Shown here piece after piece: positions 1,187 to 8,079 of a stretch of 64,000 nucleotides of DNA (position 1 is its first letter; each line of letters begins with the position of its first letter). Source of the DNA: an uncultured Actinomycetes bacterium. Lineage in GTDB: Bacteria; Actinomycetota; UBA4738; HRBIN12. The notes under the pieces were generated by a model. That model was not told the DNA's origin. It ran no database searches and worked only from the letters and a program-made list of their open reading frames with translations. The translations under genes and the position numbers were made by a program. The stretch lies in the NCBI GenBank assembly GCA_964640085.1, contig CAZXFA010000005.1:46438-110437 (forward strand). The letters run 5' to 3'.

Positions 1187-1618
1187 CGAGAGCCCCTCGG
1201 CGTCGACGTGTCTGGTCGAGAGCCGGGCGAACACGGGAGGGCCAGCCTGGGCAGTCCGGCAACTCGCGAGGTGCTGTTCGACGATGCCACCACCTCGCTT
1301 GGAGGGCTGAGACCCTACCCGAGAGGAGAGGCGGGCCGGAAGACTCCTGTCTCCGATGCGAGGGGCATGCTTGCAGCAAGCGTCGCCACCCTCAGATCGA
1401 GGTCGGGGCGGCGTAGCTCAACGGCATGTCCTTCACCGAGGACCGCAGCCACGTACCGGGCCGCCTTGTGGTGTGGGCCCTTCCAGCGGAACGTGAAGTC
1501 ATGGGAGCCGACGGAGAACAACAGCAGCTCGCTCATACGAACATGCCCCCGCGTACCGTTACGCAGTAGTTGTCGGCCCCGGCGCCTCCCGCCTTGAGCG
1601 GTGCCCAGCCCCGGTCCG

Positions 1619-2542
1619 TCAGCTCGGGACGGGAGGGGGCGGCGGCGCGAGCGGCGGCGCCATCGGCCGCATCTCGCTCGGCCCGGGGCGCCTGGCGACC
1701 CAGAGCGCCCCGAGCCCGACGACCGTTGCCACCAACCAGGCGAGTCCACCGAGGAACGGAACCAGGGCGAGGAGCCGGAAGATGCCCCATCCGATCAGGA
1801 ACGCGAGATACCGGGACGTGGGCTCGCTGACGATGAGCCGACCGAAGGCGAGCGTGCCGACCACGTACCCGATCGAGTACACGAGCGCGAGCGCGAGGAG
1901 GAGGAACAGCCCGAGCGGGATCCCCACGATCGTCACCAACAGCAGGCCAGCGACGATCGGGAGCAGGATGAACACCAGCAGGCCGAACCCGATCGTGGCC
2001 CCGAGGCGCGTTCGGAGCGCTCGGACGCTCGCCGGGTCGAGCCTGGGGACGAGGAGGAGCAGGATCAGCCCGAGCACGAGCGAGGACACCGTGTACGCGA
2101 GCCACCAGGCGAAACGACCGACGAACGTGACGTCGTAGAAGTCCCATCGGGTCGCGAGGTCGTCGACGCTGCCTCCCACGGTGGCCCCGTCCTCGATCTG
2201 CGGCTCCTCCAGGCTGATGACGTCTCCCCCCACCCGCGATCCCGAGCGCAGCACGACGGCACCGTTGAAGACGATCACGTCCTCGTCGACCGTGCCGGTG
2301 ATCTCGGTCCTCCCGTTGAACACGACGAGCGACTCGGAGACCATCCCGTCGATCACAGCATCGCCGTTGAAGATGACCGCGGTCTGCACGGTCTCCCCTC
2401 GAGGTACCAGGAGACTTCCGGTGATGACGATCTGGTCGTCGGTGGACAGGCTGGCGTCCTGCGCGGCGGCTCCGGGAGCGACGGTCAGGACGCCGAGGAA
2501 GAGGATCGCCGCGACGCCGATCGATCTTCCCAACCACCGCAT
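1619..2542 (-). CDS. Membrane-anchored bactofilin-like (polymer-forming cytoskeletal type) repeat protein
   Basis: Signal-like N-terminus MRWLGRSIGVAAILFLGVLTVAPGAAAQ. Repeated beta-helix-like units (VIFNGDAVIDG, VVFNGRTEITG, IVFNGAVVLRSG). C-terminal half has several hydrophobic spans. Start chosen at the internal ATG with the signal peptide. Confidence 0.75.
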   Translation of the reverse strand: MRWLGRSIGVAAILFLGVLTVAPGAAAQDASLSTDDQIVITGSLLVPRGETVQTAVIFNGDAVIDGMVSESLVVFNGRTEITGTVDEDVIVFNGAVVLRSGSRVGGDVISLEEPQIEDGATVGGSVDDLATRWDFYDVTFVGRFAWWLAYTVSSLVLGLILLLLVPRLDPASVRALRTRLGATIGFGLLVFILLPIVAGLLLVTIVGIPLGLFLLLALALVYSIGYVVGTLAFGRLIVSEPTSRYLAFLIGWGIFRLLALVPFLGGLAWLVATVVGLGALWVARRPGPSEMRPMAPPLAPPPPPVPS

Positions 2543-5140: not shown

Positions 5141-5352
5141 GGCCCGAACCTCCCTTCGCACGATGAGGTGACCACCCGAACCTATCGCAGCGCCCCCTTC
5201 ATCCGCTGGCGGTCGGCCGTAGCCGGATCGCGAACCGGGACCCCTGGCCTAACGCGGGGAGCCCACGCTCCTGGTCTCGTGGGACCTTCGACCCTAGTGA
5301 CGCGGCGTCCCCATGTGTCCCATGGGGACAGACGTCGGAGAAGGAGACAGCG

Positions 5353-6942: not shown

Positions 6943-7047
6943 CTACCGCTCGCGGTGCTCCTTGTTCATGTGGCGATCGAGCTCATCTTGATCCGAGGCT
7001 CGCTTCCCACAGTTCGGGCACTTGAGGCCCTCGTCCTTCTCATCCAT
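6943..7047 (-). CDS. 34-aa mini-protein with classical C2H2 zinc-finger spacing
   Basis: Hand-translated as MDEKDEGLKCPNCGKRASDQDELDRHMNKEHRER, i.e. C-x2-C-x12-H-x4-H. Below the ORF-track length cutoff. Same strand as the neighbouring genes. Confidence 0.4.
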   Translation of the reverse strand: MDEKDEGLKCPNCGKRASDQDELDRHMNKEHRER

Positions 7048-7137: not shown

Positions 7138-7815
7138 TCACACCGCCTCTTCGAGATCCTCCTTCCGCACCGTCCCCACGAGCCGGCCGTCCGAGGTGGT
7201 GACCAGCGCGGTCTGAAGATCGTGGCGTTCCATGAACCGGAGCATCTCGCGGGCCGTCACGTTCGGTCGGAACGTGCTGGGACCCGATGTCATCGCCTGT
7301 TCGATCGGCGCACCCGGATCGGCGTCCTCGAGATCCGACGCGTACGCCCGGCCGAGCACGACCTGGTCCCCGCTCACGACGACCGCCGTGGTCCACCCAT
7401 CCTCTTCCAGACGGTCGCGGACGCCCTCGACGGTGTCGGAGAGCCCGGCGGTGGGGACGCCGCTCTGGGCGAGGCCCCCGAGACGCGGCTTCTCGGCCTC
7501 ACGCCCTTCCATCGGGAGCCCCATCGCCGCCCAATCCGCCTTGCCGGCCGCGTAGTCCGACACATCGGTGAAGCCGAGCGCTTCGAGCCGCCACGCGGCT
7601 CGTGGGCTCATGTCTCACTGGTGGTCGTAGCAGTAGACGACCACCGGCCGGGATCGGTCCAACTCGGAGGCCGCCCGATCGATCCCGTCCAGGGGGACGT
7701 TGACCGCACCTGGCAGATGCTCCTCCTCGTACTCCTGCGCGGGGAGCACCTCGACCAGGGTGGCCCCCGCCTCGGCCAGCGCTCGGACCTCCTCTCGGTC
7801 AACGACGTTCGGCAT
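7138..7815 (-). CDS. Rhodanese domain + tandem CBS protein interrupted by one in-frame TGA (7615-7617): selenoprotein candidate or pseudogene
   Basis: Track ORFs 7615..7815 and 7138..7611 share a frame. The rhodanese fold spans the stop (VVVYCYDHQ-TGA-DMSPRAAWRLEALGF...GKADWAAMGLP). Two CBS repeats lie C-terminal. Confidence 0.7.
7585..7609 (-). promoter_or_regulatory. Hairpin immediately 3-prime of the in-frame UGA (SECIS-like position)
   Basis: RNA GAGCCCACGAGCCGCGUGGCGGCUC forms GAGC/GCUC plus CCACG/CGUGG (9 bp, 2-nt bulge, loop AGCCG), beginning 6 nt after UGA. GC-rich context makes chance hairpins common. Confidence 0.3.
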
Positions 7816-7869
7816 GGTTCACCTCCGACATCCGCGTTCGGCCGGTCCCGCACACCGCCGGTGAAGGGC

Positions 7870-8079
7870 TCATCCCCCGTGCTCGTGGAGGACGGGGACC
7901 GACTCGCGGAGGACGAGGCGCACGTCGCGGGCGCAGAGCGCCTCGCGGCAGTCCTCGCGCTCGCAGAACGCGCAGGCGACGAGCAGGGCCCCGCAGGTGT
8001 TGCAGGTCAGCTCCATCGATGTGAGGTGTTCCCCCTCCGGGCGGGGGTCAAACCGCGGCCGGGCCTCGTGCTCGCCCAC
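7870..8079 (-). CDS. Small Cys-rich protein (6 Cys in the last 48 aa)
   Basis: MELTCNTCGALLVACAFCEREDCREALCARDVRLVLRESVPVLHEHGG, with almost every third codon position G/C. Start is either GTG 8079 or ATG 8016. Confidence 0.45.
   Translation of the reverse strand: MGEHEARPRFDPRPEGEHLTSMELTCNTCGALLVACAFCEREDCREALCARDVRLVLRESVPVLHEHGG

Follow-up and report, generated by a model that had tools for sequence, protein, structure and literature searches.

The window analysed here is a 64,000-nucleotide (nt) stretch of DNA from an uncultured Actinomycetes bacterium (assembly GCA_964640085.1, contig CAZXFA010000005.1, positions 46,438 to 110,437), and the element in question is a minus-strand gene within it that joins a rhodanese domain to a pair of CBS domains and is interrupted by a single in-frame TGA, which we propose to be a selenocysteine (Sec) codon followed by its selenocysteine insertion sequence (SECIS). 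An initial annotation of this DNA had described two open reading frames (ORFs) in one frame split only by this stop, a rhodanese fold that crosses it, two CBS repeats behind it, a similar third-position GC content on either side and a C-x4-U placement within the active-site loop, all of which held up in our analysis. The ORFs at 7615..7815 (66 codons) and 7138..7611 (157 codons) share a minus-strand frame, their sole break is the TGA at 7617..7615, and the translation joined across the stop reads MPNVV...RPVVVYCYDHQ-*-DMSPRAAWRLEALGF.... The GC content at third codon positions is 0.88 on the 5′ side of the stop and 0.85 on the 3′ side. The features of the gene are as follows:

7138..7815, minus strand: the proposed complete selenoprotein gene, 225 codons with Sec at codon 67, with orthologues of the same architecture that carry the same TGA
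7822..7826, minus strand: Shine-Dalgarno-like GGAGG, 6 nt 5′ of the start ATG (7815..7813), read off the sequence
7525..7794, minus strand: rhodanese domain, residues 8-97, across the TGA (Pfam PF00581, 56.4 bits, E=4.5e-15)
7630..7632, minus strand: codon TGC of Cys62, the last residue of the strand VVVYC, aligned with the VYC of 3tp9
7615..7617, minus strand: in-frame TGA, the proposed Sec67 codon (C-x4-U), Cys in most homologues and TGA in at least 117 loci
7584..7602, minus strand: SECIS-type hairpin with an 8-base-pair (bp) stem and the loop GUG, identified by fold, conservation, covariation and fit to the bacterial SECIS (bSECIS) model
7138..7473, minus strand: linker and predicted CBS pair (Bateman module), residues ~115-225, from Pfam and from the model and Foldseek matches of homologue P0002
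7140..7138, minus strand: true stop TGA of the rhodanese-CBS gene

Membership of the rhodanese family is indicated by a PF00581 match well above its gathering cut-off (56.4 against 22.2 bits) and by a Cys that ends the central strand; Cys62 lies at the canonical position of the rhodanese active-site Cys, from which we infer a catalytic role. For the second half of the protein, Pfam finds one CBS repeat only (residues 172-224, 37.6 bits), and the full pair appears in an AlphaFold model that we made of the Cys-containing homologue P0002 (58% identity to the window protein; mean predicted local distance difference test score, pLDDT, 96.2). This model predicts a rhodanese domain followed by a complete CBS pair: its first half superposes on BH2092 (3nhv) with a root-mean-square deviation (rmsd) of 1.5 Å, and its second half is matched by Foldseek to MgtE, CBSX and other CBS pairs, consistent with assignment as a CBS pair. 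Among solved structures we found none that combines a rhodanese domain with a CBS pair, and a sequence search of them returned no close rhodanese with a C-x4-C loop. Compared with that of 3tp9 (VYCRTGGRS), the active-site loop is two residues longer and contains the TGA column; it is acidic, with two invariant Asp, and Y61, C62, D64, D68 and R72 are all invariant in the alignment of homologues.

A protein search with the window product returned 1881 relatives, and we counted the residue under the TGA in 102 full-length matches. These share the motif Y-C-x-D-x-Q-C-D-x-S-P-R-A-A-W-R-L-E, in which the TGA column is Cys: 90 of the 102 carry Cys, as the initial annotation had anticipated, 11 are recorded as 'W' and one has Arg. 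The in-frame UGA is thus aligned with a Cys of non-selenoprotein homologues. The one 'W' that was checked among the 11 (P0085; L214 394-1056) proved to be a TGA rendered as Trp by the gene caller. In the Arg form (P0011; L215 1274-1963) the codon at the Sec column is AGA and the downstream hairpin is still perfect, which on sequence grounds marks it as a probable 'fossil' SECIS; this gene adjoins a MerB gene. The two closest protein matches, P0001 and P0076, are truncated and start right past the stop, a first sign that other organisms have the gene interrupted at this point too.

We therefore turn to the distribution of the TGA itself. A scan of a collection of species-representative genomes for TGA followed by the back-translated motif D-x-S-P-R-A-A-W yielded at least 120 loci, of which at least 117 are true orthologues (117 of 120 among the matches listed), from about 114 species-level genomes. 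They share the motif ...P-V-[IV]-V-Y-C-x-D-x-x-TGA-D-[ML]-S-P-R-A-A-W-R-L-E..., and the TGA is kept in orthologues with as little as ~45-50% identity. Four contigs that encode P0076 or P0001 (L001-L004) carry TGA at the same codon; those of P0076 (68% identity) come from the NCBI metagenome-assembled genome GCA_035643275.1, ENA and JGI, and that of P0001 comes from Logan. Among the matches listed, the actinobacterial carriers comprise unclassified Actinomycetota, Rubrobacter (six of the listed loci), Gaiellaceae, Solirubrobacterales, Acidimicrobiales, Streptosporangiaceae, Jiangellaceae and Nitriliruptorales, together with one isolate, Micromonospora sp. NPDC005206; the same matches include Chloroflexota (Dehalococcoidia, Thermomicrobiales and Limnocylindria among them), Dormibacterota and single bins of Rokubacteria, Binatus, Eisenbacteria and Acidiferrales.

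The initial annotation had also raised the question of whether close relatives would show a degraded gene, and they do not. Past the TGA the frame runs on without a stop for a median of 163 codons (114 loci), and a comparison of the window with L001 gives ratios of nonsynonymous to synonymous divergence (dN/dS) of 0.33 for the part upstream of the TGA and 0.37 for the part downstream, which indicates purifying selection on both halves of the gene. Orthologues that carry the TGA elsewhere and coding conservation on both sides of the stop, two hallmarks by which selenoproteins are recognised, are therefore both present.

Two further observations concern individual loci in this survey. The Logan contig L004 (270-950) is 96% identical to the window 3′ of the TGA, with a synonymous divergence (dS) of 0.07, and has a dS of 1.03 5′ of it; because it is near-identical downstream and strongly diverged upstream, this copy would be either a recombinant or a chimeric assembly, with its junction at the conserved SECIS. 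Two loci from bins labelled Candidatus Nitrosopolaris (L071) and Burkholderiales (L099) carry gene copies typical of Actinomycetota or Chloroflexota, one of them with the small Cys-rich partner described below, and these contigs, with their archaeal and proteobacterial labels, are probably mis-binned.

Downstream of the UGA lies a conserved RNA element, CGAGCCGC-GUG-GCGGCUCG, at 7602..7584, which forms a perfect 8-bp stem that starts 12 nt past the UGA and has its loop 20 nt past it. The 61 nt round the site have a minimum free energy (MFE) of -26.9 kcal/mol (z = -2.76 against shuffled sequences) in a fold that includes the CGAGCCGC/GCGGCUCG stem, and the hairpin by itself has -14.0 kcal/mol. 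The published bSECIS model calls for a loop of 3-9 nt, a stem of 4-16 bp, a UGA-loop distance of 16-37 nt and an MFE of at most -7.5, with a G within the first two loop positions that is usually followed by G or U (PMC13188914). A check against such a model had been proposed at the outset; the hairpin at 7602..7584, which is not the one originally drawn, falls within all of these limits (loop GUG of 3 nt, 8 bp, 20 nt, -14.0 kcal/mol). That earlier structure, GAGC/GCUC plus CCACG/CGUGG, can indeed be drawn on this RNA, but it is neither the MFE fold nor the conserved one: as a functional element we rejected it, as it is intact in only 56 of 119 orthologues and its mismatches are uncompensated.

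To compare the hairpin between genes with and without the TGA, we set 119 non-identical TGA forms against 32 true Cys forms that a metagenome scan had supplied. Stem positions are paired in 98.3% of cases in the TGA forms and 87.1% in the Cys forms; the stem is intact in 104/119 of the former against 12/32 of the latter (Fisher 4e-8), and the GUG loop is present in 117/119 against 16/32 (Fisher 5e-11). RNAalifold recovers the stem from the TGA set and no structure from the Cys set. Synonymous sites that take part in stem pairing are almost fixed in the TGA forms: Arg+5 has a purine-ending codon in 118/119, Ala+6 is GCY in 118/119, Ala+7 is GCG in 117/119, Arg+9 is CGG in 112/112 and Leu+10 is CTY in 118/118, while 43% of the Arg codons across the window end in a pyrimidine. 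Where the peptide itself changes, the stem partner changes with it. In one five-member subclade Arg+9 has become Gln (CGG>CAG) together with Ala+6 GCC>GCT, and in L030 it has become Leu (CGG>CTG) together with Ala+6 GCC>GCA. These are two independent compensatory double changes. In the Cys forms, the mismatches found at that pair (C·A and G·G) have no compensation. Codons +1..+14 have a dS of 0.10 when the window is compared with L001, against 0.74 upstream and 0.67 further downstream. Taken together, these comparisons argue that the hairpin is maintained specifically with the TGA.

The active-site loop also occurs in a form with two TGA codons. In three orthologues from Chloroflexota bins (L073, bin B35T1B5; L111; L023) the first Cys is a TGA as well, giving U-x4-U (V-Y-U-M-D-G-L-U-D-M-S-P-R), and in L073 and L111 the frame is intact. 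The first UGA of these forms lies 35 nt from the same loop, which is inside the bSECIS range, and the second lies 20 nt from it; a single hairpin would thus serve both codons.

Evidence on Sec decoding comes from the contigs of the carriers. The contig of L028 encodes a formate dehydrogenase, FdhA, with a TGA at 5281-5283 (minus strand) in the context ...ENQARI-TGA-HSATVPGLGTSFGRGG..., a canonical Sec site; with the TGA read through, the product reaches 1949.9 bits against NF041513 (cut-off 1400), and a hairpin with a GGUCU loop lies 3′ of the UGA. Other carriers encode an AhpD-like gene (TIGR01926) with C-T-F-TGA, that is CxxU (L049, TGA 1953-1955, minus strand), an ArsM-like gene with the TGA at a conserved Cys (L092, TGA 1455-1457, plus strand) and a Prx-like gene with W-TGA-P-Y-C, that is UxxC (L120, TGA 2534-2536, plus strand). 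All four are known types of selenoprotein with the TGA at the canonical Sec position, and none is more than a few kb away from the rhodanese-CBS gene. Rubrobacter xylanophilus is a documented user of Sec (PMC1794560). The Sec genes of the carriers and the case of Rubrobacter are indirect support, for the lineage and not for the source genome of the window.

A side result of the same contigs is a membrane-anchored, thioredoxin-like ORF in which an in-frame TGA is kept within S-P-T-TGA-x-x-C, in two bins of Rubrobacter and in a third, also actinobacterial, bin (L005 2166-2168, plus strand; L084 5162-5164, minus strand; L094 1357-1359, minus strand). C-terminal halves of it occur in six loci, it has no match in Pfam or NCBIfam, and it may represent a further unannotated selenoprotein.

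The conservation of the UGA, of the hairpin and of the reading frame is read directly from these sequences, and on this basis we consider the TGA at 7617..7615 to be a genuine Sec codon with its SECIS, with a probability of roughly 0.88. Because the same codon and the hairpin that follows it are kept in more than 100 genomes of soil bacteria, the gene would be a widespread selenoprotein. By analogy with the known bacterial pathway, the ribosome would meet the UGA at codon 67, SelB loaded with Sec-tRNA(Sec) would bind the 8-bp hairpin with its GUG loop, 12 nt 3′ of the UGA, and Sec would be inserted in place of termination. The product would be a protein of 225 residues, with the rhodanese domain ahead of the CBS pair and Sec67 five residues past Cys62 in the lengthened loop Y-C-x-D-x-x-U-D-x-S-P-R. 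There it could resolve or accept a persulfide on Cys62, or form a Cys-Sec selenenylsulfide with it, and the CBS pair would probably act as a ligand-sensing regulatory module.

Several points weigh against this interpretation. Neither the 64-kb window, as the initial annotation had noted, nor the DNA flanking the 120 loci contains selA, selB, selD or a tRNA-Sec gene: no tRNA-Sec turned up in tRNA scans, which covered the window and 117 of the 120 pattern-scan loci, searches for SelA, SelB and SelD motifs gave nothing real, and Pfam scans of 20 window proteins brought up no sel genes. In the Cys forms 87% of the stem pairs survive, against 98% in the TGA forms, so that some of the potential to pair is due to the conserved peptide SPRAAWRLE itself or to recent conversions of Sec to Cys. 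At 3 nt, the loop is as short as the bSECIS model allows. An Rfam search of the whole window at gathering scores gave no match, SECIS included, and permissive thresholds round the site gave a chance-level p27_CRE match only; to our knowledge, Rfam may hold no general bacterial SECIS model. Finally, the likeliest role of Sec67, that of a redox-active or chalcogen-relay partner of Cys62, is pure inference on our part.

Readings other than Sec insertion, namely non-Sec read-through, a split gene, a pseudogene and code reassignment, together take up only a small remainder of the probability. One may postulate a programmed read-through of the UGA without Sec, by near-cognate Trp or Cys decoding, or a regulated termination that works as a truncation switch, given that a conserved UGA and hairpin cannot identify the inserted residue. 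We know of no comparable system of non-Sec UGA read-through in bacteria. We regard this scenario as improbable: the UGA aligns with Cys, the Cys/Sec pairing on which selenoprotein prediction relies, the geometry of the hairpin and the G-U of its loop fit a SelB-type model (PMC13188914), and canonical Sec proteins are encoded on carrier contigs.

An alternative raised from the start, that the gene is split into a 66-residue N-terminal piece and a 157-residue piece re-initiated at ATG 7611 that assemble non-covalently, seems to us less probable again. It draws on the window having an ATG (7611..7609) 3 nt past the in-frame stop and on gene callers annotating two ORFs, but because codon +2 is ATG in only 71/119 orthologues, re-initiation is excluded as a general mechanism; the codon is CTC, CTT or ATC, none of them a start, in at least 28 orthologues and CTG in L004. 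In the window itself, inspection of the sequence found no Shine-Dalgarno motif ahead of ATG 7611, that is, nothing comparable to the GGAGG of the upstream start. The break would moreover sit within the active-site loop, and the locked hairpin would be left unexplained.

The possibility of a fresh pseudogene, a TGC-to-TGA nonsense mutation or an assembly-specific base-call error, also voiced initially, has in its favour that TGC and TGA are one change apart, that Cys forms are common and that the window is without Sec genes. The orthologue survey contradicts it, with the same TGA in at least 117 independently assembled loci from several phyla, as do the purifying selection on both halves, the open downstream frame and the maintenance of the hairpin specifically alongside the TGA, and we judge it very improbable. 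A genome-wide reassignment of TGA to a sense codon, in line with which some public gene calls render this TGA as Trp, is hardly credible: the code is not reassigned because TGA is the ordinary stop of 30/44 predicted window genes, 77/114 orthologues end their own ORF in TGA, and the window has no other coding-like in-frame TGA, the remaining candidates being wrong-frame artefacts of high GC.

Two small ORFs flank the gene on its own strand:

7870..8079, minus strand: small Cys-rich ORF ending ...HEHGG, beside the Sec gene and on the same strand in 24 other species
6943..7047, minus strand: 34-residue C2H2 zinc-finger-like ORF (Pfam zf-C2H2, 27.9 bits), downstream on the same strand

The first occurs in the window, in L001 (1051-1221) and in 23 more loci (e.g., L013 3945-4079, L040 4210-4049 and L072 4390-4190), upstream of the Sec gene in the window and L001 and downstream of it elsewhere. 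It encodes a protein of ~50 residues with an invariant C-x2-C-x6-C-x2-C-x4-C-x4/5-C, usually an extra C-x2-C and a C-terminus H-x-H-G-G, with no match in Pfam or NCBIfam. From its recurrent position it may be a partner of the Sec rhodanese-CBS protein, and its Gly-Gly end beside a rhodanese recalls, by analogy, sulfur-carrier proteins. The zinc-finger-like ORF keeps its place next to the gene in L001-L004, and L040 and L116 have weaker matches to it. Within ~4.5 kb of the gene in L005-L124, the neighbourhood is enriched in Thioredoxin_3/DUF2703 proteins (18 loci), pyridine nucleotide-disulfide oxidoreductases of class I (11), ArsR (10) and MerR (9) regulators, DUF3179 (8) and DsbD_2 (6), and extracytoplasmic function (ECF) sigma factors recur as well (11). 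The families present point to a recurrent context of thiol-redox and metal(loid) stress; such neighbours are absent from the window's own neighbourhood.

These results bear first on annotation. Public pipelines call the gene as two ORFs ('CBS domain-containing protein', 'MgtE') or give its TGA as Trp, and because they do so more than 100 genomes would hold a mis-annotated selenoprotein; a family model of its own, provided with a Sec exception rule, would put this right. The gene could also serve as a marker of Sec use among the Actinomycetota, Chloroflexota and Dormibacterota of soils and deserts, phyla from which the selenoprotein surveys we compared name few members. The Cys-x4-Sec loop with its natural Cys, Arg and double-Sec variants offers a series for probing what Sec contributes to persulfide or chalcogen transfer, and the compact, very uniform SECIS (8 bp and GUG), of which Cys and Arg derivatives keep 'fossil' copies, lends itself to studies of Sec/Cys turnover.

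Compared with known systems, the recoding mechanism is the established one and there is nothing new in it. With bSECIS genes of the E. coli fdhF/fdnG type the gene shares an in-frame UGA at a Cys column, a stem-loop directly downstream inside the coding sequence, G then U opening a small apical loop and a UGA-loop spacing within 16-37 nt. It differs from them in its perfect 8-bp stem with a loop of only 3 nt, in that loop being GUG in place of the GGUC type, to which the FdhA loop of L028 belongs, and in that SelB binding is here a prediction.

On the protein side, the nearest relatives are the Cys-containing rhodanese-CBS homologues (e.g., P0002, P0003 and P0007; 45-58% identity), annotated as 'rhodanese-related sulfurtransferase/CBS domain-containing protein', which share the architecture, the length and the invariant loop residues but have Cys at residue 67 and an eroded hairpin (intact in 12/32, GUG in 16/32). 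Single-domain rhodaneses (BH2092 3nhv, Alr3790 3ilm and the rhodanese domain of 3tp9) and CBS pairs (MgtE and CBSX1/2) each match one half of the P0002 model, with rmsd 1.5-2.5 Å over 105-130 residues. No NCBIfam model reaches its cut-off for the rhodanese-CBS protein, and our literature search found no paper that unites selenocysteine, a rhodanese, a CBS domain and SECIS.

A 2026 review lists five forms of rhodanese selenoprotein, UxxS, UxxG, CxU, UxxG and UxxxxU, and makes no mention of CBS domains; the third is rhodanese_LYCAU (NF041203) and the fifth is TsoB (NF045694), a rhodanese/DsbD fusion (PMC13188914). All share with our gene a rhodanese domain with Sec in or beside the active-site loop. 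Against NF041203 the window protein scores 27.6 bits (cut-off 115), and its Sec is at +5 from the Cys instead of +2; against NF045694 it scores 30.4 bits (cut-off 805), in the rhodanese part only, and it has one Sec and no DsbD domain, although the four-residue spacing of TsoB, U-x4-U, recurs in three of the orthologues described here. Form 1 (UxxS, WP_010941598.1) was compared by motif only, and the local U-D-M-S would itself read as 'UxxS'. Further differences from the known forms are that the first Cys is kept, that the rhodanese is fused to a CBS pair and that the carriers are mainly Actinomycetota, Chloroflexota and Dormibacterota. With form 1 compared in this way, the family seems to be a variant that has not been catalogued so far. 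A broader proposal, which we put forward tentatively and hold at somewhat less than even odds, is that terrestrial Actinomycetota, Chloroflexota and Dormibacterota share a widespread selenoprotein family that has gone unrecognised: a rhodanese-CBS protein with Cys-x4-Sec, sometimes Sec-x4-Sec, unlike the five known forms in Sec position and architecture, genetically paired in many species with the undescribed H-x-H-G-G Cys-rich protein and often set amid thiol-redox and metal(loid)-response genes, a context which suggests that it might form a new Sec-dependent module for handling sulfur, selenium or metalloids.

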